Under the pieces are notes generated by a model, which saw only the letters and a program-made list of their open reading frames with translations, made no database searches and was not told the origin of the DNA. The position numbers and the translations under genes are program-made. DNA of 64,000 nt from Polyangiales bacterium (GTDB lineage Bacteria; Myxococcota_A; Polyangia; Polyangiales; Ga0077539): positions 32,001 to 96,000 of the forward strand of contig JBGARZ010000023.1 of NCBI GenBank assembly GCA_044229975.1, written 5' to 3'. How positions within the stretch are numbered: position 1 is the stretch's first letter; every line of letters begins with the position of its first letter. This document shows positions 2,445 to 18,201 of the stretch, in pieces.

Positions 2445-3908
2445 ATGACAGGCCACTTTGCAGCGCGGGTCGGAATGCTTCTCGCGGGCATGTTGCTGAC
2501 CCCCGCGCCAGTGAGCGCGAACGGTCGCTTCCCGACGGCGGGCTACTTCGTCGCAGGCCCCGGGGTCCGCAATGACGTGTTCGCGCTGCGTACCACCTTC
2601 GGCGTGCTCGCCTCGCGCGACGCCGGGCAGACGTGGACGTGGGTCTGCGAGGCCGCCTACAACCAGATCGGCGCGAGCGACCCCACGCTCTCCATCGGCG
2701 CCGACGGAACCCTGGTTCTCGCCTCGTACCTCGGGCTGATTGCGAGCGACGGCGACTACTGCTCCTGGCCCAGGCTGGCCGGAGTGCCGCAGCGGGATTT
2801 CGCCGACGTGACCAACACCGCCGACGGGCGCTCGCTGGTCGCGCTCGCGGGGCCCGATGGTGAGAACGCGCTCTACCTCTCCAGCGACGCCGGCCACACC
2901 TGGGAGTTGGGGGCTCGCCTCACCGGATACGCGACCGAGACCGTGGACGTCGCGCCCGGCGATCGCCTGCGCGTGTACGTCACCGGCTACGGCAGCGGCG
3001 GGCGACCGGTGCTGCTGCGGAGTGACGACGGTGGTCGTACCGTGCGCGAGGTCACGAGGGATTTCCTGGGAAACCAGAACATCTATATCGCCGGGGTCGA
3101 TGCGACGCGCCCCGACATGATCTACCTCCGCGCCATGAACGGCCTCGCGACCACGCTGCTGCGCAGCGAGGACGGCGGGGCGACGATGCGGGCCGTCGGA
3201 CGGACCGCGCGGGACATGCTGGGCTTCGCGCTCTCCGACGACGGGGAGACCGTCTGGATCGCGAGCGCCGACCGCGCGGAAGGCATCCTGCGGTCGGAGC
3301 GCGGAGGGCCCTGGGTTCGCATGGCGGCGGACGTGGGCGTGAAGTGTCTGCGCTTCCACGCGGGCACGCTGTTCGTGTGTGCGGACGAGGCGCGCGACGG
3401 CTTCGCGCTGGGCTATTCCCACGACGGTGGCGACCACGTCGACCCGCTGCTCTCGTTCCGCTTGGTGGACGGGACGACCACGACGTGCGGCTCGAGCACC
3501 CAGGTCGGCGCCACCTGTCCCGCCCTCTGGTCCTCGGAGACGATCCTGCTGCGGAGCGTTGACGCGAGCGTGCCGAACGCTCCGGTCTTCCACGACGCCA
3601 GCACCGATCATGGGGTCATCACCGACCGCCTTCCGCCGCTCGACACCTACGTCCCGCCGTCGGACGGGGCGACGGTGCGCGACGCGGGTCGTGGACTCGA
3701 CGCGGCGGTCGTGAGCGGGACTGACGCTGCGATGGACGCTCAGCGTCCTCTCGACGCGGCGGTAGGATCGACCGGCCCCGCAGGTGGTTGCGGCTGCTAC
3801 GTCGCCAGTCGCGATGCATCGAGCGATCGGGGTGGGGCGTGCGTCGCGCTGGCCGTGTGGGTCACGTTCGCGGGAACATCAAGGCGCGCGCGGCGTCGGC
3901 GGCGATGA
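2445..3908 (+). CDS. Secreted Asp-box/BNR beta-propeller protein with MYXO-CTERM-like tail (paralog 1)
   Basis: Signal peptide then NGRFP; repeated SxDxGxT(W) Asp-boxes; C-terminal GGCGC + hydrophobic helix + RRRRR. Confidence 0.85.
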   Translation: MTGHFAARVGMLLAGMLLTPAPVSANGRFPTAGYFVAGPGVRNDVFALRTTFGVLASRDAGQTWTWVCEAAYNQIGASDPTLSIGADGTLVLASYLGLIASDGDYCSWPRLAGVPQRDFADVTNTADGRSLVALAGPDGENALYLSSDAGHTWELGARLTGYATETVDVAPGDRLRVYVTGYGSGGRPVLLRSDDGGRTVREVTRDFLGNQNIYIAGVDATRPDMIYLRAMNGLATTLLRSEDGGATMRAVGRTARDMLGFALSDDGETVWIASADRAEGILRSERGGPWVRMAADVGVKCLRFHAGTLFVCADEARDGFALGYSHDGGDHVDPLLSFRLVDGTTTTCGSSTQVGATCPALWSSETILLRSVDASVPNAPVFHDASTDHGVITDRLPPLDTYVPPSDGATVRDAGRGLDAAVVSGTDAAMDAQRPLDAAVGSTGPAGGCGCYVASRDASSDRGGACVALAVWVTFAGTSRRARRRRR

Positions 3909-5377
3909 GTCCCTCGCCAGAACGTCCCCTGGGTGGCCGGAGGCGACAGGCGGTGCGGTTGGGGATGCTGTTGGTGGCGACGGCCCTGAGCTCTGCGGAG
4001 GCGCGGGCGAACGGGCGCTTCCCCGGGGCCAACTACTTCGTGGCGGGGCCGGGTTCGCGCAACGACGTGTTCGCGCTGCGTACGACCTTCGGACTGCTGC
4101 TCTCGCGCGACGGTGGTCGGGCGTGGAGCTGGGTCTGCGAGGGGGCCTACGGGGCCATCGCGGGCGACCCCGCGCTCTCGATCGGAGCGGACGGCACCCT
4201 CGTGCTCGCGTCGTACGTCGGCCTGAGCGGCAGCAGCGGCGGTGACTACTGCACCTGGGCGCCTCTGGGAGGAGTTCCTGTGCGGGACTTCATCGACGTC
4301 TCGCAGACCGCGGACGGCCGGTCGATGGTCGCCCTCGCGGGGCCCGGCGGGGAGAACGCGCTCTACCTCTCGTCCGACGGCGGGCGCACCTGGAACCCCG
4401 GCGCGCGCCTCGTCGGGTACACCACGGAGACCGTGGACGTCGCGCCCAGCGACCCGACGCGGGTCTACGTCACCGGGTACGCGACCACGGGCTCGGGCGG
4501 ACCGGTGCTGCTGCGAAGCGACGACGGCGGTCGCACCGTTCGAGAGGCCACGCGCGACTTCCTCGGCGGCGAGAGCGTCTTCCTGGCCGGGGTGGATCTG
4601 ACGCGCCCCGACGTGATCTACCTGCGCGCCGTGCGCGGCCTCCCGACGACCCTGTTGCGCAGCGACGACGGAGGAATGACCGTACGGCTCGTCGCGCAAA
4701 CCGCGCGGGAGATGCTGGGCTTCGCGCTCTCTGACGATGGTGACACGGTGTGGATCGCGAGCGCCGATCCCGCCGGGGGGATACTGCGATCGGAGCGTGG
4801 CGGCCCATGGACGCGCACCGCAGCGGACCTTGGCGTGAAGTGTCTGCGCTTCCACGCGGGCACCCTGTTCGTGTGCGCGGACGAGGCGCGCGACGGCTTC
4901 GCGCTGGGCTATTCCCGCGACGGCGGCGACCACGTCGATCCGTTGCTCTCGCTGCGTCTGGCGGAGGGCGCGTCCGGGGCTTGCGGTCCAGGCACCCAGG
5001 TGGGCGGCGCCTGCGCTTCCCGCTGGGCGACAGAGACGATGCTGCTCCGAGACATCGACGCGAGCGTGCCAACCGCGGCGGTGTTCCACGACGGGAGCAC
5101 CGATCACGGAGTCGCACTCGATCGGGCTTCGCCAATCGACGGGCCGACCGGTCGCCTCGACGCGGGTCAACCAACCGACATGATGGTCCTTCCCCCTGGT
5201 GGCTGCGGGTGTCGCGTAGCGGGGCGGGGCGGAGGGCCAGCACGGGGCGTGACGGTGAGCGCGTGGCTCACCGCGGCGGTGGTGCTCGTCGGGCGTTTGA
5301 GGCGACGAGCGCCGGCGAGGAGTGCCCATCTCCCGGCAGCCCGACTTGCTCCCGCGCAAACGGCGAGGCTCGGTTGA
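3905..5377 (+). CDS. Secreted Asp-box/BNR beta-propeller protein with MYXO-CTERM-like tail (paralog 2)
   Basis: ATGA overlap with the upstream stop; long identical stretches with paralog 1 (e.g. GVKCLRFHAGTLFVCADEARDGFALGYS); GGCGC-TM-RRR tail. Confidence 0.85.
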   Translation: MSPSPERPLGGRRRQAVRLGMLLVATALSSAEARANGRFPGANYFVAGPGSRNDVFALRTTFGLLLSRDGGRAWSWVCEGAYGAIAGDPALSIGADGTLVLASYVGLSGSSGGDYCTWAPLGGVPVRDFIDVSQTADGRSMVALAGPGGENALYLSSDGGRTWNPGARLVGYTTETVDVAPSDPTRVYVTGYATTGSGGPVLLRSDDGGRTVREATRDFLGGESVFLAGVDLTRPDVIYLRAVRGLPTTLLRSDDGGMTVRLVAQTAREMLGFALSDDGDTVWIASADPAGGILRSERGGPWTRTAADLGVKCLRFHAGTLFVCADEARDGFALGYSRDGGDHVDPLLSLRLAEGASGACGPGTQVGGACASRWATETMLLRDIDASVPTAAVFHDGSTDHGVALDRASPIDGPTGRLDAGQPTDMMVLPPGGCGCRVAGRGGGPARGVTVSAWLTAAVVLVGRLRRRAPARSAHLPAARLAPAQTARLG

Positions 5378-5443
5378 CGGAAATGCGAGTGCTTTGATAG
5401 GGCAGTCTCGGAGTGTGCTGGCGCACCTCATTGGGAGGACATC

Positions 5444-5749
5444 ATGGATATCCGAACTGTCGCTTTTGCCGTCGCTTCGTTGGCTTTGGGTTTGGCTGCC
5501 GGAGACATCAGGGCTGAAACACCGATCACCATGCAGGAGGACGTGCTCCAGACACCTCCCGCGACCCCCTTGCAGCACTGCTGGCAAGAGTGCCATCCCG
5601 AGTGCCATCCGGTTTGCGTCCCCGAGTGCCATCCGGTCTGCCACCCCATCTGTGATGCCGATGGGCACTGCCACCAGGACTGTCACCAGGAGTGCCACCA
5701 GGACTGTCACCAGGAGTGCCACCAGGAGTGCCACCAGGTTTGCCGCTGA
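5444..5749 (+). CDS. Secreted Cys/His periodic-repeat peptide (C-H-x-x repeats, 14 Cys)
   Basis: GGAGG RBS; signal peptide; CWQECHPECHPVCVPECHPVCHPIC-DADGH-CHQDCHQECHQDCHQECHQECHQVCR. Confidence 0.8.
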   Translation: MDIRTVAFAVASLALGLAAGDIRAETPITMQEDVLQTPPATPLQHCWQECHPECHPVCVPECHPVCHPICDADGHCHQDCHQECHQDCHQECHQECHQVCR

Positions 5750-5947
5750 CGAAGAGGCGGACCTCCTCGTCGGAAGCCCGCATGTAGAGAGCGAGTGCGC
5801 GCGTTGGCGAGGTTTCTTCCGGGGGGTGTCGCCATCGAAATCCGTCGAGGTGCGACGGAGGCAACGTATCGGGGATCGTCCAAGCTGCGAAGGCCCGATC
5901 GCCGCGAGGCGTGCCGCACCTGCAACCGTTGGGTGTACCTTCCCGGC

Positions 5948-7258
5948 GTGCTTCGACGAGCTCTCCTCGCAACCGCGCTGAGCTTCCTTCCAGCCACGGC
6001 CTACGGCAACGGACGCTTCCCCCAGGCGCAGGAGTTTCACCAAGCCCCGGGCTCGAACAGCGAGCTCATGGTCGTGCGCGCCACCTTCGGACTCATCGTC
6101 AGCGTCGACCGGGGCCAGCGGTGGGAATACTGGTGCGAGGACGCTCTGCAGTACTCCGACGGCTACGATCCGCCGCTGACGTACACCGCCAACGGCACGC
6201 TGCTCGTCGCCCTCGACAACGGCCTCTTGAGCACCCGCGATGGGTGTTCAGTTCGCCGCCAACCCGACCTCGAGTCCCTCAGCGTCAAGGACATCGCCTC
6301 GTCGCCCGACGGCCGCGTGACATGGGCGATCGCGGTGACCCGCAGCATACGACCCGACTCGCGCGTCGCACGTTCGACCGACCAGGGCCTCACCTTCGAG
6401 TTCGTCGGCGACCGCTTCGAGGGGGTGATGCTGGAAACCATCGAGGTCGCGGGCTCCGATCCGCTGCGGCTCTACGCCACCGGCACGCTGACCTCCGACG
6501 GCACCGCGGTGCTCTTCCGCACCGTGGACGGCGGCGTGCGCTGGGTGCGCGCCAGCGCGGGCTTCGGCGAGGCTAGCGGGGTGTACGTCTCCGGCGTCGA
6601 TGGGCATCGCCCGGAGGTCGTCTACCTGCGCGCGACCGCGGCCGGGCGGGACATGGACGCCGGCCCCGCGGGCAGCGCTGATGTGCTCTTCCGCAGCGAC
6701 GATGGGGGTGAGACGCTGCGCGAGGTGCTTCGTACCCGCGGCCCGATGCGGGGGTTCGGACTCTCCGACGACGGTCGACGGGTGTGGGCTGGCGGGCCCG
6801 AAGACGGCGTGTGGCGCTCCATCGACGGGGCAGCGCCCACGCGCTTTTCGGACGAGCCTGTCGACTGCCTCCGGTGGAGTTCGGGTGCCCTGTGGGCCTG
6901 CCGCGTCTTCACCCTCGGCGGCCCCTTGTTGCTGCGGAGCGACGGCGACAGCGCCTTCGTCACAGCGCTTTCGGCGCCTGAGGTTGGCGGTCCTCCGGTC
7001 CGTTGCCCGACCGGAACCGTCGCGAGCGGGGTGTGTCCGTCGCGGTGGAGCGTGGTGCGGCGATCTCTCGTTCAGCCGGCGGCGATCGATGCCTCGACCG
7101 ACCAGGGCGCGGCGGTCACGCAGCCGTCCTCGGCGGGCCATGGATGCCACGCCGGACCTGGGGCGCAGGGGGCTTGGAGCGCCTTCGTCGGGTTCGCCGT
7201 TGCGGCGATCGGACGGCGGCGGCGCACTCGCACCCTCCGCTCCCGCCCTGACGGCTGA
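5948..7258 (+). CDS. Secreted Asp-box/BNR beta-propeller protein (divergent paralog 3)
   Basis: Signal peptide then NGRFP; ATFGLIVSVDRGQRW, RSTDQG, RTVDGG, RSDDGG boxes; GC-TM-RRRR tail; start uncertain (5933 or 5948). Confidence 0.8.
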   Translation: MLRRALLATALSFLPATAYGNGRFPQAQEFHQAPGSNSELMVVRATFGLIVSVDRGQRWEYWCEDALQYSDGYDPPLTYTANGTLLVALDNGLLSTRDGCSVRRQPDLESLSVKDIASSPDGRVTWAIAVTRSIRPDSRVARSTDQGLTFEFVGDRFEGVMLETIEVAGSDPLRLYATGTLTSDGTAVLFRTVDGGVRWVRASAGFGEASGVYVSGVDGHRPEVVYLRATAAGRDMDAGPAGSADVLFRSDDGGETLREVLRTRGPMRGFGLSDDGRRVWAGGPEDGVWRSIDGAAPTRFSDEPVDCLRWSSGALWACRVFTLGGPLLLRSDGDSAFVTALSAPEVGGPPVRCPTGTVASGVCPSRWSVVRRSLVQPAAIDASTDQGAAVTQPSSAGHGCHAGPGAQGAWSAFVGFAVAAIGRRRRTRTLRSRPDG

Positions 7259-7348: not shown

Positions 7349-7657
7349 GGCGTTCAGCGATACCCGACGTACGACGCAGTTGCCCGTTGGCTTGTGACGT
7401 CAATCCCTCTAGAAGGCGTTACTTCTTGCCATCATAAAGGCAAGATATCCTCCGTCTGGATCCCTCCTAATCCGGGGCCGAGGGGCGCGAAGCGGAACCG
7501 ACGGCCTGTAGAGCACCTCTACAGAATGCCTCAGGCCGACAAATTAGCTAACGATTATAGCAAGTTATCGGCATGGCTCCACCGGGGTCTGCCGGAATCT
7601 GGCCGCTCGTGCTTCCACCGGGGTCTGCCGGAATTTGGCCGATCGCTCGGCCGGGCC
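7349..7657. repeat. Origin-like element copy 1 (palindromes, AT-rich stretch, two iterons); inverted homolog of 12127-12464
   Basis: Aligns by eye to the reverse complement of 12127-12464; iterons ccaccggggtctgccggaat(c/t)tggccg at 7579 and 7615; palindrome CTGTAGAG-cac-CTCTACAG at 7506-7524. Confidence 0.8.
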
Positions 7658-7665
7658 ACCGTCTG

Positions 7666-9181
7666 CTACCGCCCACTCAGTCGGGCGACAGCTTCTTCGA
7701 GCGCGCGTCCCATCTCCGCCTCGGGGTCCGCTTCGGCCCGGATCACGCTCCGCGTCCCGACCCCAAGAGTTTGGGTCACCTGGACCTGAGTCCAGCCCTT
7801 GGACCTGCGCCATGCGCGCAGCTCGCTGCCCGTCGGGATCGAGGGCACTGGGGCGGCTCGACGGGCGGGAGGTGGTGGATCAGGCGGTCGCGGACCCACT
7901 GGGGGGGTAGAGGTGACAGCGGCCCCCGAGCGTCCGTTCGCCGCCCGCTTGACACCATCGCACCTCGCCCAGACCTTCGACGCGTTGGAGTTCGGCCAAG
8001 TCGCGCTCGAGGGACGTCCAGGCGCGACCCGGCTTGTTGGAGTCGAACTTGATGCCCGCGGTCTCGAGGAGTCCCTGGCCGGTGAGCGTGACGCACTCCC
8101 GGCCCTTCGCGAGGTCCCAGCGCCAGTGGATCGGGAGGATCAGTCCCAGGGCGAGGGCGCAGGGGTGGCGCACATGGTCGATGCGCGCGAGGTCGGCCGG
8201 GGCGGGTGCCCAGAGTGATCCCAGGGTGCCGTCGCGGTCCCGGACACCCTCGTAGAGCGCGGGGTGGATGGCCAGCACGAGCCCCTCCAGCGCCCACTCG
8301 GAGTCGTAGATCGCCTCGGCCCGCTGCGTGATGCTGAGCACGGGGCCGCGCATCCGCAGCTCCCCGCTGCGGTGGTAGATGGCCAGTTCGAGCCGCGTCA
8401 GCGCTTCGACCTCGTCGGCGACGACCTTACGCACGGAGTCGTCGCGGCGCGCGCGGTCGGAGTACCCGAGCGCGTCCATGTGCGCCTCGATTTTCCACCG
8501 CACGAACCCCGTTCGCCCCTCCGTGGTGAGCAGCCGGTGCCAGGCCGCCCAGTGCCGGAGCCCCTGCCACCCGCACCACGCCCTCACGGCGTGGATGATC
8601 CGCTCGGGGAGTTCTCGGACGTCCAGCTGCAAGCGCACCTGCCGGGTGGGGGCGAGGATCTCGGCCCACCCGTCCATGACCGGCGTCTTGTGCGGTTGCC
8701 TGTCTTTCGGGCGGTCGCGCCAGCCGTTGAGCAGCGCGTGGTGCGCGGGACCCGCGTCGAGTGCCATGAACGGCCGCTCGCGGTCGCGCTGGGCCGCGCG
8801 GACCGCGTGAGCCGAGAGCGCCGACAACGCCAGGACCCTCGCCAGCTCCCAGACCCTGGACAGGAAGTCCTGCTCGCCCGCGACCCCTTGCTCGGCGGCC
8901 ATGACCAGCGAGGCTGCACCCCACGTCCAGTCGAAGGCCGCCCCGCCGCGGATTCCGGGAAGGGTCGCCGGTCTGTCCGGTGTACCGGTTCCCCGATCGA
9001 CTGGGCGGTTCGCGCCGTTGGCTTGGAGCGCGAGGACGGTGCTGAACACCTCGCCGCGCGCTTCCAGATCGCTGCGAAGGTCGGCGAGGCCTTCCGGGCC
9101 GCTCGCCGTGGCCAGGAGCCGGTCGATCACCAGGCCGAGGTCCTTGTCCGACACCAGGGCTCGAAGCGCGTTCCGCAGCAC
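7666..9181 (-). pseudogene. Frameshifted paralog of the putative Rep-HTH protein at 12751-14397
   Basis: Strong similarity to 12751-14397 (ELPERI.HA..AW..WQGLRHWAA; IHPALYEGVR; ALALGLILPI.WRWD); frameshift at the G-run near 7900 and again near 7850; HTH in a separate frame; 5' end abuts an ATPase fragment. Confidence 0.8.
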
Positions 9182-9192
9182 CTGGGCGTCGG

Positions 9193-9737
9193 CTCGGCGT
9201 CACGGACACGCCGCGCGAGCACGCGAAGGAGGTGCTGAGGGAGCTGCTGGCGATGAGGGTCCAGAAGACGCTCATGCTGAGCGGAGACCACCAGGGGTCG
9301 CCGACGCGGTGGCCCGGCAGGTCGGCCTGACCGACGCGAAGGGCGACCTGCTCCCCGAGGACAAGGGCCGCGTCATCGACGAGCTCGCGAAGGCCGGCGT
9401 CGGCGTCGCCATGGTAGGCGACGGGTTCAACGACGCCCCAGCGCTCGCCTGATCGACCGTCGGGATCGCCATGCGGGCAAGCGGTTCGGACGTGGCGCTG
9501 AAGACAGCAGACATCGTGCCCATGGGTGACGACCTGCGGGCTTTGCCCTTCGCCGTGGGCCTCAGCCGCGCCTGCCGGCGGGTCATCCAACAGAACCTCT
9601 GGGCGAGTCTCGGCATGGTCGCGTTCCTCATCCCAGCAACTGTGTTCGGGATCGCCGGCATCGGCGTCGCGGTCGTGCTGCACGAAGGTTCGACACTCCT
9701 TGTCGTGACCAACGCCCTGCGCCTGCTGGCATTCATT
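9193..9737 (+). pseudogene. C-terminal fragment of a heavy-metal P1B-type ATPase
   Basis: DTPR..MLSGD (frameshift) [19 protein letters not shown] then SDVALKTAD..QNL..VVLHEGSTLLVVTNALRLL. Confidence 0.85.
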
Positions 9738-9744
9738 GCCCCCA

Positions 9745-9819
9745 TTTCACAGCGAAACCATAGTTGCTTCTCCGCCTTTCCTTCTGGACGTCATTCCTTC
9801 ATGCCGTCACGAAGGCAAG
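9745..9819. repeat. ~75-bp diverged direct repeat of 12470-12544
   Basis: tttc.cagcgaaacc.tag...ccgcctttcc....gacgtcattccttc.tg.cgtcacgaaggcaag in both copies. Confidence 0.8.
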
Positions 9820-9844
9820 ATGGTCGCGTCGTACCGTGCGTCCA

Positions 9845-9923
9845 CGCCGCGTGCTTCCACTGCGACCCTCTGCTGGAGGGGTGTGACCCCGATCCGGCGT
9901 GACATCAGTCGTCGAGCTGTTGA
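9845..9923. repeat. ~80-bp direct repeat of 11827-11910
   Basis: cgccgcgtgcttccactgcgaccctctgctgg...ggggtgt.gaccccgatccggcgtg.catcag.tcgtcgagctgttga in both copies. Confidence 0.9.
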
Positions 9924-9924
9924 G

Positions 9925-11448
9925 TTAGGGGGGTCGAGTCGGCGACTGTGACCCTGACGGCCCATGCTTCCGCGGCGGGGACCGACGGCGAGCCGGGACG
10001 ATCAGTCCCAGGACTGCCAGCACGAGCGACGCGCCACCCCCACCGGGCGCGGCGTGCGCCCCCGCGCGGCAGTTGCACCCGTCGCGCGGCGCTGGTGCGC
10101 CAACGGCGTCGAGCACGGTGTCGGGGGCATCGAGCACCCGGCCCGCGTCGCGGGCGTCGGCCCCGCCGAGATCCTCAGACACGTCGGGCGCGGCGCCGAG
10201 GTCCGCGGGCAGCGTCCCGGCGTCGAGCGGCGCCTGCATCCCGCTCGCGTCGAAGACGGCGGCATCGTGGAAGACCGGCGCGCGCGGCGCGCTCGCGTCG
10301 ATGCTCCGAAGCGGCGCCGAGACCGCCGACCAGAAGTCGGCGCACGTCGCCCCGACGCTGGCGTCGCCGCACATCGGAGAGGTGCCGGTGAGCCGACGTA
10401 GCGAGAGCAGCGGGTCGATGTGCTCGCCGCCGTCGTGGGAGTAGCCCAGCGCGAATCCGTCAATCACCTCGTCGGCGCACACGAAGAGCAGCCCGGCGTG
10501 ATAGCGCAGGCACTTCACACCAACGTCGCCACCGACACGCGTCCACGGGCCACCGCGCACCGATCGGCGGATGCCCTCGGCGCGAGCGGAGCTCGCGGTC
10601 CAAACGGTCTCGCCGTCGTCGGAGAGCGCAAAGCCCACCATCTCCTCCGACGTCTCCCCGATGGGGCGTAGGGTCAACCCGCCGTCATCGCTGCGCAGCA
10701 ACACCGTCCCGAGACCACGGGTACCTCGCACGTACACCACGTCGGGCCGGCGCGGATCGACGGCAGCGAGGAATACCCCATGGGCGCCGGCAAAGTCCCG
10801 CGCGACCTCGCGCACCGAGCGCCCGCCGTCGTCACTGCGCAGAAGAACCGGGATGCCGCCGCGAACATAGGCCGTCACGTAGACTCGCCGCGGGTCGTTG
10901 GGCGCCACGTCCGCGGTCTCGCTGAAGTACCCCATCAGCCGCGCGCCAGCTTCCCAACTCCGCCCGCCGTCGGACGAGAGCACCAACACGTCGTCGCCGG
11001 TGGGCCCGGCCAACGCAACCATGGCGCGCCCGTCGGCGGTGTGGGTAATGTCGGCAAAGCCCCGCGTGGGCGCGCCCGCCGGACGCGTCCAGCGACAGTA
11101 CGCCCCGTTGCTGGATGCGAGCCCGGTGAAGGTTGCGATCACCACGGTGCCGTCGGCGCCGATGGAGAGCGACGGATCGGCAGCGCCAGGGGCATTGAAG
11201 CCCTCCTCACAAACCCAATCCCACTGCCGCCCGCCGTCTCGCGAGAGCAGCAGACCGAAGGTCGTGCGCAGCGCTAGGACGTCGTTGGTCGCGCCCGGGC
11301 CCGCGACGAAGTATCCCGCTGCGGGGAAGCGCCCGTTGGCCTGCGCCTCGCCCGCGAAACCGAGAGCCAGCGCCAGACCCAGTGCCCCCACCCTACCCCG
11401 CACCGCTCCCCCGCACATCCAATGCCCACCCGCCGTTGGTGCTGTCAT
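9925..11448 (-). CDS. Secreted Asp-box/BNR beta-propeller protein with MYXO-CTERM-like tail (paralog 4)
   Basis: GGGAG RBS before ATG 11448; AQA-NGRFPAAGYFVAGPG; closely similar to paralogs 1 and 2; DGCNC-TM-RRR tail. Confidence 0.85.
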   Translation of the reverse strand: MTAPTAGGHWMCGGAVRGRVGALGLALALGFAGEAQANGRFPAAGYFVAGPGATNDVLALRTTFGLLLSRDGGRQWDWVCEEGFNAPGAADPSLSIGADGTVVIATFTGLASSNGAYCRWTRPAGAPTRGFADITHTADGRAMVALAGPTGDDVLVLSSDGGRSWEAGARLMGYFSETADVAPNDPRRVYVTAYVRGGIPVLLRSDDGGRSVREVARDFAGAHGVFLAAVDPRRPDVVYVRGTRGLGTVLLRSDDGGLTLRPIGETSEEMVGFALSDDGETVWTASSARAEGIRRSVRGGPWTRVGGDVGVKCLRYHAGLLFVCADEVIDGFALGYSHDGGEHIDPLLSLRRLTGTSPMCGDASVGATCADFWSAVSAPLRSIDASAPRAPVFHDAAVFDASGMQAPLDAGTLPADLGAAPDVSEDLGGADARDAGRVLDAPDTVLDAVGAPAPRDGCNCRAGAHAAPGGGGASLVLAVLGLIVPARRRSPPRKHGPSGSQSPTRPP

Positions 11449-11514
11449 CCCTACTCCCGCGATCCTGACACGGAATGCCCGGCTTCCGCCCCGGACAAGG
11501 GCTCGATGACTTCC

Positions 11515-11531
11515 TACTATCCGTCGTAGTA
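11515..11531. promoter_or_regulatory. Palindromic operator-like site TACTA-N7-TAGTA
   Basis: TACTATCCGTCGTAGTA in an AT-rich intergenic patch upstream of paralog 4. Confidence 0.45.
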
Positions 11532-11589
11532 TTTTCGCGACTCGCGCGGACGTTCCGCGCCAGGAGACGGACGGAACGTGACCAAACTG

Positions 11590-11824
11590 CAGTCTGACCT
11601 GCGGCGCGCTCACGCTCGTCGGCTGGGTGGCCGGGAAGCTGGGCGCCCCTCCCTCACCTGCAACGTGCCCTTCTGGCTCGCGTACGCGGCGGGCGGGTGG
11701 TTCGCGCTGCGTAAAGCGGTGCTCGTCATCCGCGCGAAGAAGTTCGAGATCGACTTCCTCATGCTGGTGGCCGCCGCGGGCGGGGGCGCTCGGGGAGTGG
11801 TTCGAGGGGGCGCTGCTGCTCTTC
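11590..11824 (+). pseudogene. N-terminal transmembrane fragment of a heavy-metal P1B-type ATPase
   Basis: LAYAAGGWFALRKAV..FEIDFLMLVAAAG / GALGEWFEGALLLF, split by a frameshift and then truncated. Confidence 0.75.
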
Positions 11825-11826
11825 CC

Positions 11827-12125
11827 CGCCGCGTGCTTCCACTGCGACCCTCTGCTGGTGGAGGGGTGTTGACCCCGATCCGGCGTGGCATCAGGTCGTC
11901 GAGCTGTTGAACTCCCCGTGATCCTGCGCGAGGTGACCAGTGGGTCCGCGACCGCAGCACGGCGCAGCCACGCCCGACGACACCACCGACCCGTAGCGGA
12001 TCGGCGAAACCTCTCCAGACAGCGACTCAGCAAGGGCGCCCGTACATGTGCGCGGCGGGCCTCGGACGCAGCTGCTCGGGGGCGACCTCGCGGCGCTCAC
12101 GCCATGGGTGCCGCCAAAGCACAGA
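11827..12125 (+). pseudogene. Highly decayed third copy of the rep-like gene
   Basis: QWVRDR at 11938 matches PQWVRDRL of both rep paralogs; DPLLVEG resembles HPALYEG; lies next to iterons in the same geometry as the other copies. Confidence 0.45.
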
Positions 12126-12126
12126 G

Positions 12127-12464
12127 GCCCGGCCACACGATCGGCCAAATTCCGGCAGACCCCGGTGGAGGATTCGGCCAGCTTCCGGCAGATCCTGGTG
12201 CCAGATCGGCCAAATTCCGGCAGACCCCGGTGGGGACATGTCGATAACTTGCTAGAATCGTTACCTAATTTTCTAAACCAAGGCCTTCTGTACAGGTACT
12301 CTACAGAGCCGTCGGTTCCGCTTCGCTCCTCTCGGCCCCGGATTAGGAGGGATACGGCCGAAGGATGTCTTGCCTTCATGACGGCAAGAGGCAACGCCTT
12401 CCAGATGGAGTGACGTCACGAGATAGCGGGCAGTGGCGTGGTACACCGGGTATCGTTGAACGCC
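12127..12464. repeat. Origin-like element copy 2 (three iterons, AT-rich stretch, palindromes)
   Basis: cggcca(aa/gc)ttccggcaga(c/t)cc(c/t)ggtg at 12142, 12175 and 12207; AT-rich 12242-12280; inverted homolog of 7349-7657. Confidence 0.8.
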
Positions 12465-12600
12465 CCTCGTTTCGCAGCGAAACCGTAGGCGTCCACCCGC
12501 CTTTCCATGTAGACGTCATTCCTTCCTGACGTCACGAAGGCAAGCCTTCGTTCCGTCACCTTATGTGCCGGACCGTCCTCCAGACGGGCCGAGCACCAGA

Positions 12601-12830
12601 AGGTTCTCCTCAGAGGAGAACCTCAGAGAGGACGTCAGAAAGTTGATTTCTCCTGTACTTCCAATGACTTGCAACAGGGCCTTCCGCAGGATCTGCCGGA
12701 TTCCTGCCGGTTCACCCGCAGGATCTGCCGGATTCCTGCCGGTTCATCCGCTAGGTCTGCCGGATTCCTGCCGGTCCACCCCTCCTGGCCAGTTCATCCG
12801 CAGGGTCTGCCGGATTTCTGCCGGTCACCT
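12601..12830. other. Putative replication origin of the intact replicon: perfect palindrome, AT-richer stretch, four iterons
   Basis: AGGTTCTCCTC-A-GAGGAGAACCT at 12601-12623; ccgcaggatctgccggattcctgccgg-like units at 12684, 12716, 12748 and 12798 (32-bp period for the first three). Confidence 0.7.
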
Positions 12831-14397
12831 GCCGGTCGAGACCCGCCCGGATGGCTCGCCCGAGCGGCTCGTCAGGCGCCGCCTCGGCTCCCCGAATGGT
12901 CCTCTCCCCCACGCCCAGCATCTTCGCCGCTTGCGCCTGCGTCCAACCTTGCTGCAAACGCCAGGCGTGTAGTTCGCCACCTGTTAGCAACAAGGGCGTC
13001 GCGAGCTGCTCGGCCGGCTCGATTCCATGAACCAATCGGTCACGGACCCACTGCGGCGGGTAGAGGTGGCAACGCCCGGTACGGGACCGCGCCTCGTTCG
13101 GGTTCCACCGGGCGAGCCCGAGTCCCCCCACGCGCTGCAGCTCCGCGAGGTTGCGGTCGAGCGCCGTCCAGGCCCTCCCGGGGTCGTGCGAAGACACGGG
13201 GATCCCAGCCGTGTCGAGGAGGCGCTCTCCCGTGAGGGTCAGATGATCCAACCCGTCGGCGGTGTCCCATCTCCACCGGATCGGCAGGATCAGTCCGAGG
13301 GCGAGCGCGTACGGGAAGCGGGCGTGGTCGATCGTCGCCAGCTCGGTAGGAGCCGGGGCCCAGAGCCTCCCGATGGAGCCGTCGGCGCGGCGGACCCCCT
13401 CGTACAACGCCGGGTGGATGACGAGCTCGAGCCCCTGGAGCGCCCACTCGGACCCGCGCAGGGCCTCGCCGCGCTGGGTCACGGCGAGAACTGGGCCGCG
13501 CAGGCGGAGGGTGCCGTCTGAGTTGTAGACGGCGACCTCCATGCGCGTGAGGGCTTCGACCTCGGCGGCGACGGTCGCCCGCAGCTCGGGCGTTCGCCGC
13601 GAGCGGTCGGCGTAGCCGAGGGCGTCGAGGTGGTCTTCGAGCGACCAGCGGATGCGCCCCGTACGTCCGGCCTCGGTGAACAGGCACTGCAGCGCGGCCC
13701 AATGCCGGAGCCCCTGCCACGACCGCCACGCTTTGATGGCATGAACGATCCGCTCGGGCAGCTCCTGGACGTCGAGCCGTAGCCCGAGCTGTTTGCTGGG
13801 GTGGAGGATCTCGGCCCACCCTTCGCGCTGGGTCGTCGTGTAGGGACGCCGACGATTCTTCGGCAGGTCGCGCCACCGGTCGATCAGCGAGTGGTGAACG
13901 TTGCCGGCGTCCAGCGCTATGAAAGGCCGCGCTCGGTCGCGTTCGATCTCGCGCCACGCGAGGTAGGCGCGGGCCGCGAGTGCGACAGAGATGGGCGGTT
14001 CATCGTCCGCGTCGTCGCGGCCGCCCGAGGCGAAGAGGCCGCGGATGCGGTCGCAGCAGGCAGCCGCTGCGGCGGGGTCCGGCGCCCGGTCGCCGAGCCA
14101 GGCGACGACATCGGCGGGGGCGGCGGCCAGCGGCCAGAGCGGCAGGGCAGAGCCGCCCTCCACGCTGACCTCGATGGCCATCCAGACGGTCGGGTCGGCG
14201 CCGAGTTCGGCGCCCGCCGCCGTCAGCGCGGCGAGGTGCGGCTCGGTGTCGGAGAGGCCGGAGGCGCGCACCCGATCGACCACCGCCGCGCGCACGGCAT
14301 CAGCGACCAGCGTTCGGAGCGCGCCGTCGAGCGCGTCGAGGTCGGCTCGCACGAGCAGAGCACGGGCGTCGGAGCGGCGCACGACGAGAGGGGTCAT
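12751..14397 (-). CDS. Putative plasmid replication initiator with C-terminal XRE-type HTH
   Basis: Intact ORF downstream of parA and its partner; ends within the iterons; C-terminal TGGELHAWRLQQGWTQAQAAKMLGVGERTIRGAE HTH; Rep function inferred from context. Confidence 0.65.
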   Translation of the reverse strand: MTPLVVRRSDARALLVRADLDALDGALRTLVADAVRAAVVDRVRASGLSDTEPHLAALTAAGAELGADPTVWMAIEVSVEGGSALPLWPLAAAPADVVAWLGDRAPDPAAAAACCDRIRGLFASGGRDDADDEPPISVALAARAYLAWREIERDRARPFIALDAGNVHHSLIDRWRDLPKNRRRPYTTTQREGWAEILHPSKQLGLRLDVQELPERIVHAIKAWRSWQGLRHWAALQCLFTEAGRTGRIRWSLEDHLDALGYADRSRRTPELRATVAAEVEALTRMEVAVYNSDGTLRLRGPVLAVTQRGEALRGSEWALQGLELVIHPALYEGVRRADGSIGRLWAPAPTELATIDHARFPYALALGLILPIRWRWDTADGLDHLTLTGERLLDTAGIPVSSHDPGRAWTALDRNLAELQRVGGLGLARWNPNEARSRTGRCHLYPPQWVRDRLVHGIEPAEQLATPLLLTGGELHAWRLQQGWTQAQAAKMLGVGERTIRGAEAAPDEPLGRAIRAGLDRQVTGRNPADPADELARRGGPAGIRQT

Positions 14398-14447
14398 GGC
14401 GTTTCGAGAAGAGAGCCGTGCAGAGACATCGGAATGCGCTGTCTCAG

Positions 14448-14843
14448 TCAGGCCCGGAGTCGGGCGCGCAAGAGGGCCTTCAAGTCGGCCTCGGACTTCG
14501 CTTCGCTCAGGTCGAGACCCTCGCTCTCCAGCGCATCGACGAGCGCCCGTAGGATCTCCGCCCGCCGGATGGCGGCGCCGGTCTTGGCCCGGATGTCGTT
14601 TGCCAGGCGGTCGAGGAACACGATCTGTCTGTTGAAGAGGACCACGGTGACCTTGGTCCATTCCTCGTGGGTGGCAGGTCGCCCCAGGGCGGGTGCAGCC
14701 GCCTTCACGGCAGTTGGTTCGACCAGCATCGGTGGGGCCGGCTCAGCTGCCAGCGTCGCTGCCGTTTCGGGCTCGGCGGGCGCCGCCTCTGCTGCGGTGG
14801 CCGAGAAGATGTTCATCTTGCCCAGCCTGCTCGGCTTGTTCAT
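14448..14843 (-). CDS. ParG-like ribbon-helix-helix partition partner
   Basis: Directly after parA; flexible Ala/Pro/Glu N-terminus, then KVTVVL strand and two helices (RAEILRALVD); GAGGA RBS. Confidence 0.65.
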   Translation of the reverse strand: MNKPSRLGKMNIFSATAAEAAPAEPETAATLAAEPAPPMLVEPTAVKAAAPALGRPATHEEWTKVTVVLFNRQIVFLDRLANDIRAKTGAAIRRAEILRALVDALESEGLDLSEAKSEADLKALLRARLRA

Positions 14844-14878
14844 GCGTTCCTCACTTCCATTATGACGGCAGTCCGCCC

Positions 14879-15652
14879 TTACTTCTTGCCGTCTTGACGG
14901 CACCTTTGCAAGACCTCAGCAGCGAGCCGGCGATAGGCGTCGGCGCCGCTTGAGTTCGGGTCGTGCCCGAAGATCGTCTCGCCGAAGCTCGGGGCCTCCG
15001 AGAGGCGGACGTTGATCGGAATCTCTGTCTTGAAGACGCGCTCGCCGTAGTGCCCTCGGATGAGGTCGATGACCTCCCCGGTGACCTTCGGCCGACGGTC
15101 CACCTGGGTGAGCACCAGTCCCAACAAGGTGGCCTTTGCACCGGTGCCCCGGCGAAGCAGTTCCGTGGCCTCCATCAGGTTCACGAGTCCCTCGACGGCC
15201 AGGTACTGGGGTGTGACCGGCACCAGGAAGGCGTCCGCGGCCACCAGGGCGTTGATGGGCACCATCGAGAGCGAGGGAGGGCAGTCGAGGAGGATGAAGG
15301 CGTAGTCGCCTCTCACCGGCGCCAGGGCCTCCACCAGACGGCGCTCGCGTCCCTTCACGTCGGCGAGGGCGAGGTCGGCGTTGGCCAGGGCCATCGAGCC
15401 AGTGAGCAGGTCGAGGCCCTCGACGGCCGTCGGACGGATCGCGTCGCGAATCGGCAGCCCGTCGAGCAGGACCTCCGCCGACGAGGGGGCGAGCTTGTCG
15501 CGCGCGACCCCGAGCGAGAAGGACGCCGACCCCTGGCTGTCCAGATCGGCTAGCAGCACGCGCCGCGTCTTCGTGGCGAGCCCCGCCGCGAGGTTGACCG
15601 CCGTGGTCGTCTTGGCGACGCCACCCTTGTTGTTGACCAGCGCGATGATCAT
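14879..15652 (-). CDS. parA: ParA/Soj family partition ATPase
   Basis: KGGVAKTTT deviant Walker A, DLDSQG, ILLDCPP, NALVAAD, IPINVRLSEAP; no N-terminal HTH (type Ib). Confidence 0.95.
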   Translation of the reverse strand: MIIALVNNKGGVAKTTTAVNLAAGLATKTRRVLLADLDSQGSASFSLGVARDKLAPSSAEVLLDGLPIRDAIRPTAVEGLDLLTGSMALANADLALADVKGRERRLVEALAPVRGDYAFILLDCPPSLSMVPINALVAADAFLVPVTPQYLAVEGLVNLMEATELLRRGTGAKATLLGLVLTQVDRRPKVTGEVIDLIRGHYGERVFKTEIPINVRLSEAPSFGETIFGHDPNSSGADAYRRLAAEVLQRCRQDGKK

Positions 15653-15921
15653 GCCATCCGTCCTTCCGCCTAGACGGCTGGGTAGCATGACGCCCTGACT
15701 TCTTTCCATCCCAAAGTGGACCGGCATACTGTGGTCGTCGAAGGGGACCTTCCCCACCTTCGCCATGCCCACAACTACCCCTGCGAGGTCGGCGTAGAGC
15801 TCTGCGCGTGCCAGGCTCCGCCGATTCACATGCAGCTCCATGCGGGTAGACCAGGCGCACAAGCCGTTGCCACAACCGTCCCCTGCGCTTGCGGCGCCGA
15901 CCAGATCACGGGGGTGGTGCG

Positions 15922-18201
15922 ATGAGCCTCCCCGTCCAGGAACGTCGCGGGGTGTCCCCCGTCGCGCGATCGGGGTTCGCGCGGGACACGCGTATCGAAC
16001 CCAATGCCCTCACCGCAATCAAGCAGGAGGCGGCGTTTGGTTGGCTCTGCTGCCAGCTGTTGCCCGGGATGTCGAGCATTCGCGTGCTCCCCGGCGAGGT
16101 GGGCACCGAGAGGGACTGGGTCAGGCCCGCGATCCAATCGAACGTGGACCCTCGGGACGCCGTCGCCGCACACCTCCTCGCGGGCGACAGAAGGAACTCG
16201 GTGTCGTTGCCGGGGTACACGCGAGAGCCCGTGCGGTCGGTCGCGTTTGCGTACTCGAAAAGGGCGCGCACCTCGCGCCTGACAATCCACCTGTCTGGCC
16301 GCGTTCCAGGCTACGAGGTCGGCACGTTCGTCCAGCGCCTCGGCGACCGAGTGGGCCACAGCCGCCTGTTGGTCACCTCGGTCAGCGCCATGGTCGGCGG
16401 TCGCAGGGAGCACCGATGCCACGTCCGCGTGCCGGAGATGGAGGTGTTATGCGCGGTGACCGCGGTCTCTCAACTGCTCGAAGACTGCGGCTTCGCGCAG
16501 CGTAGCGGGGTGGTCGAGGTGTTCCCGGACAGCCGGTTTGCCGGCCTGCCCTTCGGGCTGCTCGAGAACGAGTTGCTGCGCTACGGCGACGGCGGTCTGG
16601 AGTCCGAGCCCGAGTGCGGGTGGCGGCGGCTGGTCGCGGAGTTTCAGGCGTTGGAGACCCTCGACTTCGAGCGTCTTCTTCCGCCCTCCTCCTCCGACCC
16701 AGAAGTCACCACATCTCGCGCCGCCGACCCGCTCGCTCCGGCGACTGTCGCCCCTCGTGCTGCCGACCCACCGATCTCCTCGACGGCGCCGTCCGTGGCT
16801 CCCGGGAGCGTTGATGCCTACTTCGAGCTGGTCTGTCACGGGGTCGCCCTCGTGTCCGTGCAGCCAGAGTCCTGCCCATGGACCCCGGAGGGGGGCTGGA
16901 AGTGGTTGAAGACGCGAATCGACGTGAAGCGTTCGGTTGTCGCGCACCTGCTGGCCTCCCAGACGGGGCAGCCCTCGCGGCTCGGGCGACGCGGCATCCG
17001 CGCGTCCGGGCTCTCGTACCGGCCCGATGCGACGACGTCCCGCATCACGATCGACCTGGACGGCAAGCACGGGTACGAGCCCGCCAAGGTCGTCGCTGCT
17101 CTCGCCGCCATCGTGGGACGCGACCGCCTGATGGTGACCGCGAGCAGCGGCTCCCCCGGGCACTACCATTGTCACGCCCGGGTCCCACCGATGCGCGTGG
17201 ATGAGACGGTCGCGGCGTCGCGCGCGCTGCTCGACAGGGCCGGGTTCAAGTGGAAGCTGGGTGGCGCGGAGACCTACCCGAGCACTGGCAACTGTCGCCT
17301 GCCGTTCGGCCTGGGCGGGTGCGAGCTGTTCGAGGACGAGCAACTCCAGGTCGGCCATCAGGAGACGTGGCAGGAGCTCACGAAGCGGCTCTGTGGGATG
17401 CCGACGCTGGTGTTCCAATCGGGGTCGCCGCCTGGTAGCCGAGCGCGTCGGCACGTCCGCTCGCGCGCCCGGGCCCGTAACGCCGAGACGGCTGCCCGCA
17501 TCGAGAGGTGGCGCGCGAACGGGGTCGAACGCCACGAGCGAAACCAAGCGCTGTTCGACCTCGTGGTGAACGGTCGTTGTCGGGGCCTCGCGGAAGATGA
17601 GGTCCTTCGCGAGCTCCAGGGATGGATCGACGGAGGCGGCCTGGCGCGGAGCGCCGTGGCGCGGAAACCCGGCGGCATCGCCAAGCAGCGTAACCAGGTT
17701 CTCCCGGATGTTGTGGAGCGGGTGTATGGCTACCCTCCCCCCGCGAAGCAGAAGGCCAACCTCACGGAGACAGAGATCGCCTGGGTCGTCGAGATCGCCA
17801 AAGAGCGATGCCCCAAACGGCGCGCGCACGCGGTGGTGCTCCTGCTCGACGTGCTGCCATGGTTCAAGGCCGCGTGGCTCGAGGGCAGGACGGACGTCAC
17901 GCTCGGGCAGAAGGAGTGGGCCCGAACCCTCGGGCGACGGGGGGATGGCTACGCGTTGCTCCGGCGACAACTGCACCTGTTCAGGCAGACGTCCCACTAC
18001 GTGATTGGCGAGCGCTCGACCACCTGGTGCCTGACCGAGCCCGTCCCCTTCGAGTCTCGCCATCCGACCGAGCGTCTGGTTTCGACGAACCCGCGTCCCG
18101 CGACGAAGCGCACTGGTTCGAAGCCCTCCCGCCTCCAAAAGACGGCGTGGGTTCTGGCGGCCGCTGAGCGGGTAGCTCGCGGCGTCGTCCGGGATGGGTG
18201 A
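15922..18201 (+). CDS. Primase-polymerase-like protein with tandem AEP-like domains and a PriCT-like region
   Basis: Second domain has ITIDLD, SSGSPGHYHCH and CRLPFG; first domain is a clear internal duplicate with LTIHLS; later HERNQALFDL resembles PriCT-1. Confidence 0.65.
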   Translation: MSLPVQERRGVSPVARSGFARDTRIEPNALTAIKQEAAFGWLCCQLLPGMSSIRVLPGEVGTERDWVRPAIQSNVDPRDAVAAHLLAGDRRNSVSLPGYTREPVRSVAFAYSKRARTSRLTIHLSGRVPGYEVGTFVQRLGDRVGHSRLLVTSVSAMVGGRREHRCHVRVPEMEVLCAVTAVSQLLEDCGFAQRSGVVEVFPDSRFAGLPFGLLENELLRYGDGGLESEPECGWRRLVAEFQALETLDFERLLPPSSSDPEVTTSRAADPLAPATVAPRAADPPISSTAPSVAPGSVDAYFELVCHGVALVSVQPESCPWTPEGGWKWLKTRIDVKRSVVAHLLASQTGQPSRLGRRGIRASGLSYRPDATTSRITIDLDGKHGYEPAKVVAALAAIVGRDRLMVTASSGSPGHYHCHARVPPMRVDETVAASRALLDRAGFKWKLGGAETYPSTGNCRLPFGLGGCELFEDEQLQVGHQETWQELTKRLCGMPTLVFQSGSPPGSRARRHVRSRARARNAETAARIERWRANGVERHERNQALFDLVVNGRCRGLAEDEVLRELQGWIDGGGLARSAVARKPGGIAKQRNQVLPDVVERVYGYPPPAKQKANLTETEIAWVVEIAKERCPKRRAHAVVLLLDVLPWFKAAWLEGRTDVTLGQKEWARTLGRRGDGYALLRRQLHLFRQTSHYVIGERSTTWCLTEPVPFESRHPTERLVSTNPRPATKRTGSKPSRLQKTAWVLAAAERVARGVVRDG

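Follow-up and report, generated by a model that had tools for sequence, protein, structure and literature searches.

The window, i.e. the whole stretch of 64,000 nucleotides analysed here, lies on contig C29 (152 kb) of a host genome (G000) of 10.0 Mb with 71% GC, which is 93% complete. It carries a short gene for a protein of 101 amino acids (P0001), in the following called the ladder protein, which stands between two paralogous BNR beta-propeller genes on the same strand. The features at this locus are:

3788-5377, + strand: upstream neighbour, BNR beta-propeller with a MYXO-CTERM-like tail of 15.8 bits (cut-off 20), from Pfam/NCBIfam; the gap to the ladder gene is 66 nt
5374-5403, + strand: candidate own promoter, weak (TTGACG, 18 nt, TAGGGC), seen in the sequence, not called by the consensus scan
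5434-5438, + strand: Shine-Dalgarno GGAGG with the ATG 5 nt downstream (sequence inspection)
5444-5749, + strand: Cys/His ladder protein gene, 101 aa (translation, codon adaptation, repeat-unit comparison)
5444-5515, + strand: likely Sec signal peptide, residues 1-24, cleavage after 24 or 20 (read by eye)
5516-5578, + strand: acidic Thr/Pro linker or propeptide, residues 25-45, ending TPLQ-H (translation; predicted unstructured by AlphaFold)
5579-5653, + strand: arm 1, Cys46-Cys70, CHPx-type 12-bp units (translation, repeat analysis)
5654-5668, + strand: DADGH turn, Cys70 to Cys76 (translation, AlphaFold)
5669-5743, + strand: arm 2, Cys76-Cys100, CHQ[D/E]-type 12-bp units (translation, repeat analysis)
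5795-7258, + strand: downstream neighbour, paralogous BNR beta-propeller with a MYXO-CTERM-like tail of 18.2 bits (cut-off 20), from Pfam/NCBIfam

Repeats of 12 bp often yield Cys runs in shadow frames, so the ladder frame was tested against its rivals. Its codon adaptation of 0.44 was the top value among the six frames compared, the others scoring 0.37 or less, and arm 2 alone reached 0.76. Between the repeat units 14 of the 24 base differences fall on third codon positions, and the codons that differ comprise 5 synonymous and 9 non-synonymous cases. Moreover, the core pattern of three plus three Cys occurs once in the window and in none of 100 shuffles, and a six-frame count over the host genome gave six runs of seven Cys at spacing four, two of which are the arms of the ladder protein. 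The GC3 of the gene (0.74) is lower than that of the flanking genes (0.83-0.86). Neither a canonical promoter nor a terminator was called at the gene by the consensus scan, and there was no RNA among the sequencing runs found for this stretch. We regard 5444-5749 as a credible gene, its expression being a prediction from sequence. A young repeat expansion that is under weak selection and has hardly any function, if any, would also account for a low GC3, for the orphan status of the protein and for the identical 24-bp copies in arm 2 that are described below; but the ribosome-binding site, the signal-like N-terminus, the bias towards third positions, an in-frame related fragment in another sample and the matched 24-bp duplications in both arms argue against such an origin, which we find quite improbable.

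The translation confirmed the central claim of the initial annotation, that seven Cys at spacing four, a DADGH turn and seven more Cys follow each other. The Cys residues stand at 46, 50, 54, 58, 62, 66 and 70 in arm 1 and at 76, 80, 84, 88, 92, 96 and 100 in arm 2, which is followed by Arg and the stop, and the two sets mirror each other about residue 73. His is the next residue after 10 of the 14 Cys, in line with the claim that most Cys are followed by His. The proposed layout of signal peptide and acidic/Pro linker was also found, the signal itself being judged by eye from a hydrophobic N-terminus with one Arg and no twin-Arg. Tandem Repeats Finder recovered the proposed 12-bp build of the arms with periods 12 and 24 in both (5588-5647 and 5669-5738), though arm 1 is not purely of the CHPx type and also holds one CWQE and one CVPE unit. 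Five Pro (52, 56, 60, 64 and 68) lie in arm 1, each two residues past a Cys. Of the 77 residues of the mature protein, 14 are Cys and 12 are His; its net charge is -12 (His not counted) with one Arg, and its pI is 5.2. Each arm contains a 24-bp duplication, with four differences in arm 1 and none in arm 2, a sequence pattern that is consistent with matched, though not simultaneous, growth of the arms from a 5+5 stage.

The 14 Cys and 12 His, together with a contig that bears a heavy-metal island, would also suit a metallothionein-like sponge, the alternative offered initially, in which reduced Cys, together with His, would coordinate Cu(I), Cd or Zn in thiolate clusters. Bacterial metallothioneins and copper storage proteins are cytoplasmic or Tat-exported and contain reduced thiolate clusters. 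The ladder protein, however, is likely to be exported by Sec into an oxidising compartment, and VKOR and DsbA-like domains are present in the host genome. Furthermore, the Cys layout is even and mirrored, the Pfam search gave no family at E up to 1, and no metallothionein or copper storage model of NCBIfam matched at E up to 10. With probable Sec export, no twin-Arg and genes for oxidative folding, the sponge has lost ground and is clearly unlikely.

Among 5.8 billion proteins (55-177 aa only), neither the whole ladder protein nor its residues 42-101 at E up to 10 had a match. The sole match among 1.84 billion representatives was the CHxA repeat protein P0002 (E 1.8e-4), which was rejected as a homolog and judged a look-alike repeat, and the Atlas search returned no usable match. 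Against 60 related genomes the best E was 5.6e-6, and the 14 non-self loci from these genomes were discarded after translation as shadow frames or low-complexity repeats. When 30 family genomes were searched at the DNA level, the top match, among 15 loci of which 3 were inspected, was a GHQE repeat in a protein without relation to the ladder, the arm-2 pattern occurred in one of 401 class genomes, namely the host genome itself, and both matches of the His-ladder pattern in metagenome contigs were microsatellites. NCBIfam contributed only sub-threshold models of Cys-repeat RiPPs, and the sole match among PDB sequences was Ole e 6 (1ss3, E 0.04), which has a helical fold. The Pfam and NCBIfam searches thus agree with the initial statement that no named family is recognisable, and the proposed check of equal arms in homologs found no full-length homolog in the proteins, representatives or genomes searched. 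By the searches run, the ladder protein is an orphan with one known copy, and we found no description of a bacterial protein of this type in the open-access literature.

One metagenome DNA run (X1), which also carries pieces at 95-99% to the genes flanking the ladder gene, contains a 184-bp contig of depth 3.5 that fits arm 2 over 46 bases with seven differences and no gap. In frame, VRAE and a short acidic linker ending QL lie ahead of the match, and CRPVC and an arm-2-type unit behind it. This sequence, of which 96 of the 184 bases were seen and which as a low-depth contig can be wrong, hints at a second ladder member, in which the end of the signal would be the same and the linker shorter. 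A second comparison, of sequencing-run contigs with positions 5380-5668 of the window, gave no match.

Smaller versions of the pattern were scanned for, in which a D/N-x-x-G turn separates two sets of three Cys. This 3+3 pattern is present in 9 of 401 phylum genomes and in at least 119 stretches from all species genomes (viral contigs left out). Most matches among those listed are shadow frames or other Cys-rich repeats, and tandem modules of 18 residues with four Cys fit the pattern as well; three kinds of real proteins were kept by eye among the matches listed. The first kind consists of large Cys-rich exported proteins, mostly from Myxococcota or Deltaproteobacteria, in which a repeated module carries the motif as an insert. 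The second is a 15-member family of exported proteins of about 170 aa (P0003-P0017; L043, L099, L132, L133) with the six-Cys hairpin motif at the C-terminus and a conserved GGxGDPR tail; all six Cys are kept in 14 of the 15 members, P0004 having lost one, and P0003 has no Pfam match. The third is a 350-codon frame (L112:2491-3540, - strand) for a repeat protein without Pfam match, the only six Cys of which form the motif as an insert inside one repeat. Like the ladder protein, the inserts of such uncharacterised exported proteins (L023, L047, L076, L077, L089, L092, L112, L118; family A2) read CxxxCxxxC-turn-CxxxCxxxC, and in many of them the turn is D-x-x-G and units of the CxQEC kind occur; unlike it, they have three rungs, lie within larger proteins and are not rich in His. 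We treat the 3+3 proteins as analogues, with a pattern shared by construction. A profile of the motif rows (A3) scored nothing on 31 genomes including the host, an uninformative result, and its best E against PDB sequences was 0.39.

Fixed mirrored arms around a free central loop are what nested disulfide pairing would lead one to expect. For a mirror test, seven Cys-rich exported frames of other genomes were hand-chosen from the pattern matches and cut by script into 53 segments, 35 with even and 18 with odd Cys counts (the latter partly due to crude splitting); 26 of the even segments had at least four Cys. Mirror gap pairs differed by at most one residue in 33 of 49 cases, compared with 21.1 +/- 2.8 after shuffling (0 of 5000 shuffles reached 33), a figure that overstates the effect, since the segments come from repeats and related proteins and so depend on one another, and since a symmetric pattern had been used to find the proteins. 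The longest gap was central in 20 of the 26 segments versus 7.0 expected, and the central gaps ranged from 4 to 25 residues.

AlphaFold, which the initial annotation had named as a check of the proposed hairpin, gave helices at 18-45 and 54-76 for the lone mature chain (mean pLDDT 68.6, pTM 0.40). With an alignment of 17 motif rows, which covers the core only and consists of analogues picked by their symmetric pattern, the model became a mirror-symmetric hairpin with strands at 31-46 and 52-67 of the mature chain, a pLDDT of 97-98 over mature residues 41-60, a mean of 74.9 and a pTM of 0.38; its ends outside the alignment are helical (pLDDT 58-64). Over five models the values were 68.5-74.9 with versus 58.6-68.6 without the alignment. 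In full numbering the predicted strands are 55-70 and 76-91, and only the inner four rungs lie within them. The strand limits lead to the register i+j=146 (full numbering), in which face A combines seven Cys:Cys, five Pro:Gln and one Gln:Gln pairs, and face B 11 His, 6 Glu and 2 Asp, 7 of 13 pairs there consisting of a His and an acid; any 4-residue repeat would produce part of this two-face sorting. In the modelled register the row of His/Glu/Asp that had been proposed is real. The DADG sequence fits a type I turn with G1 bulge, which would place Cys70:Cys76 at a non-bonded site, and such sites are favoured by disulfides and Pro. It has been described that cross-strand pairs occupy bonded and non-bonded sites in turn, the two kinds of site lying on opposite faces (PMC3592999), and that NPDG is the commonest type I turn (PMC3169518).

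The ladder protein may instead be exported and disulfide-bonded in another fold, either as a helical hairpin of the type of alpha-hairpinins and Ole e 6 or as short 1-3/2-4 modules such as those of furin-like and minicollagen repeats, so that the 7+7 symmetry would partly be chance. The helical single-sequence model and the sequence match to Ole e 6 point in this direction; beta-formers make up 17% of the arms versus 38% in the 3+3 analogues, the helix propensity of arm 2 (1.13) exceeds its strand propensity (0.87), and the 18-residue tandem modules fit the 3+3 pattern. On an ideal helix, however, the stripe formed by seven Cys at spacing four drifts by 240 degrees, and AlphaFold switches to strands with higher confidence once it is given the alignment. 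The alpha-hairpinin motif CX3C-Xn-CX3C, as defined in the consulted part of PMC7191063, occurs in the ladder protein only as the inner part of the 14-Cys array. Alpha-hairpinins and Ole e 6 resemble it in the CxxxC pairs that flank a loop and in the nested disulfides, and differ from it in being helical plant proteins with two to three rungs. The five Pro of arm 1 also speak against helices, and no helix can keep all seven Cys of an arm in a single stripe. Moreover, the fold search with the helical model gave no match. We assign these other folds a small likelihood. With the hairpin model, none of 255 matches lay at E up to 0.001 and only generic long hairpins were found, and against 48161 chains the best Z was 2.4 (rmsd 5.7, 52 aligned); none of the fold searches shows novelty or kinship.

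Overall, a long laddered beta-hairpin is on these models the probable fold. The cross-strand disulfide hairpin of the initial annotation is partly supported, namely by the mirror-spaced analogues, by the prediction with alignment and by the register, and qualified by the helical model of the lone sequence and by strands that contain only the inner four rungs. Among laddered hairpins, theta-defensins have three rungs. For capitellacin, a hairpin with a ladder of Cys5-Cys18 and Cys9-Cys14 has been proven by NMR, and its Cys residues have the same four-residue spacing on both strands as those of the ladder protein; as in tachyplesin and protegrin, the Cys pairs are nested across the hairpin (PMC7761999, consulted part). 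In this partial account, all three are cationic antimicrobial peptides of animals with two rungs, whereas the ladder would have up to seven and is bacterial and acidic. The Cys spacing of the ladder protein is mirrored as in laddered hairpins, but with its net charge of -12 and pI of 5.2 it does not present the cationic, hydrophobic/aromatic surface of the antimicrobial ones.

Long CxxxC runs are also found in the Cys-every-fourth targets of radical SAM enzymes (TIGR04117, TIGR04118). Such RiPPs are expected to have one uninterrupted Cys run and a maturase gene (TIGR04115). The ladder protein, in contrast to these single-run targets, has two arms around a turn. Its maturation in trans as a RiPP precursor by a radical SAM or MNIO enzyme could be suggested by the weak scores against TIGR04117 (12.7, cut-off 50) and TIGR04118 (9.8, cut-off 35) and by its only representative match, P0002, which shares the His after Cys. 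Both scores are below cut-off, though, and none of four candidates for the TIGR04115 maturase in the host genome exceeds its cut-off or lies on C29, the best scoring 129.5 (cut-off 350) on another contig. None of the eight SPASM domains of the host genome is on C29, and the nearest of the four MNIO genes (PF05114) is 65 kb from the ladder gene. These searches bear out the earlier remark that no maturase lies nearby. Each MNIO gene adjoins its own Cys-bearing precursor candidate; the four candidates (C29:102034-102513, C19:407225-407701, C31:107114-107605, C38:102254-102982) are lipoprotein-like with SCG-type motifs, and possibly represent lipidated MNIO products. Bufferins are Cys peptides that buffer copper and use Sec signals (PMC11626156, consulted part), as the ladder protein with its signal-like N-terminus would do. 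Together with other MNIO metallophores they are the closest functional model for the ladder protein as far as the consulted parts of PMC11626156 and PMC12452194 describe them; but they need an MNIO, a partner protein and thiooxazole rings, none of which is encoded beside the ladder gene. A RiPP precursor is therefore very improbable. In structure the ladder protein would be like a laddered hairpin and in function like a bufferin, and it is a member of neither group.

The BNR beta-propeller family, characterised by an NGRFP motif after the signal and MYXO-CTERM-like tails, has 13 members in the host genome (2445-3908, 3788-5377, 5795-7258 and 9925-12033 of the window and nine other places), eight of them on C29. 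The tails of the two genes that flank the ladder gene, though slightly below cut-off, suggest that the host is probably a myxobacterium, given the phylum range of the MYXO-CTERM tag (PMC11980579). A second orphan secreted His/Cys peptide of 101 aa is encoded outside the window, 13.6 kb from the ladder gene (C29:23557-23862, - strand; L177:6558-6863). Its mature part has 6 Cys and 10 His, its Thr/acidic linker ends TPLQ as in the ladder protein, and its gene lies directly behind a beta-propeller gene with a TTGACA box upstream. It matches the ladder protein at E 0.018 only, and in 30 family genomes nothing matched it convincingly (best E 0.006). A ladder hairpin without metal buffering, acting as ligand, spacer or matrix component, for instance for the flanking surface-anchored beta-propellers, would be in keeping with a gene between two same-strand propeller genes and with the position of the second TPLQ peptide. 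However, such a peptide stands beside a propeller at only 2 sites among 13 paralogs, both peptide genes have their own -35-like box, and the His richness and the metal-island contig would be left unexplained. We see a minor chance for this non-metal role.

With regard to metals, C29 (152 kb of 10.0 Mb) carries 5 of the 12 CusA/CzcA and 6 of the 10 heavy-metal P1B ATPases that scored over cut-off in the host genome. The heavy-metal island of the window (22900-62800) contains three CusA/CzcA systems, three P1B ATPases, CopY-like and ArsR regulators and a superoxide-dismutase-like protein. No intact metal transporter gene lies closer to the ladder gene than 17 kb, and within 4 kb the only metal transporter gene is a broken piece of a Cd/Zn-type ATPase. 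Pieces of this P1B ATPase lie in scrambled order around a beta-propeller gene (9297-9902 and 11578-11910, + strand), the C-terminal one with an internal stop and the N-terminal-like one recognised by eye. When 160 small secreted candidates of the host genome were ranked by His content, the top three, led by the ladder protein, fell within 14 kb (C29 23.5-37.7 kb), a clustering that none of 200000 random triples reached in a post hoc comparison with a crude signal filter. Two His-rich proteins without family are encoded on the - strand of the window, a lipoprotein-like one of 75 aa with 10-residue repeats (531-758; 30-bp period, 100% matches) and a secreted His/Gly/Pro protein of 89 aa (935-1204). 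The last ten bases before the ATG are identical in the gene at 935-1204 and the ladder gene. Visual inspection upstream of the His-rich genes revealed no box common to them.

We favour, tentatively and at somewhat less than an even chance, the reading of the ladder protein as a likely Sec-exported ladder hairpin with a predicted metal-buffering His/acid face outside the cytoplasm. After export by Sec, a DsbA/VKOR-type system of the host would oxidise the Cys residues. The nested pairs 70-76, 66-80, 62-84 and 58-88 are predicted to form in the model, and the outer pairs 54-92, 50-96 and 46-100 may follow by extension of the symmetry. Judging from composition and context, His, Glu and Asp of face B would bind Zn, Cu, Ni or Co rather than the thiolates doing so, and if the ladder fold is given, we consider a metal role rather likely. 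The ladder may have grown from the common 3+3 hairpin motif via repeat slippage in both arms. A more specific version of this reading, which we regard as possible yet doubtful, sees a 'metal ribbon': an unmodified, Sec-exported, free-standing hairpin whose seven cross-strand disulfides occupy one face and whose opposite face bears a dozen His/carboxylate ligands, lengthened rung by rung via matched 12/24-bp duplications in both arms. It would be one of the fast-evolving His-rich secreted peptides of heavy-metal islands, and would use neither thiolates nor RiPP maturases. If this is true, the ladder would be far longer than the documented two-rung hairpins and would occur in a bacterium, as a rigid ready-made scaffold that displays a periodic His/acid row. 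Furthermore, it would represent a third route for extracytoplasmic metal, besides efflux and modified metallophores, and would show a fold growing through paired repeat slippage.

Two further regions of the contig were noted. The window contains a plasmid- or ICE-like module (7394-18201) with ParA at 14879-15862, two related proteins at 7880-9181 and 12751-14661 that belong to a family only with their C-terminal HTH, a 770-aa protein without Pfam match and 32-bp iteron-like repeats (12139-12233 and 12684-12781). At C29:28868-29884 (- strand; L177:11869-12885) an outer-membrane barrel of a MetA-pathway family is encoded with His at both ends, and this barrel and the adjoining carbonic anhydrase are possibly a metal uptake pair.
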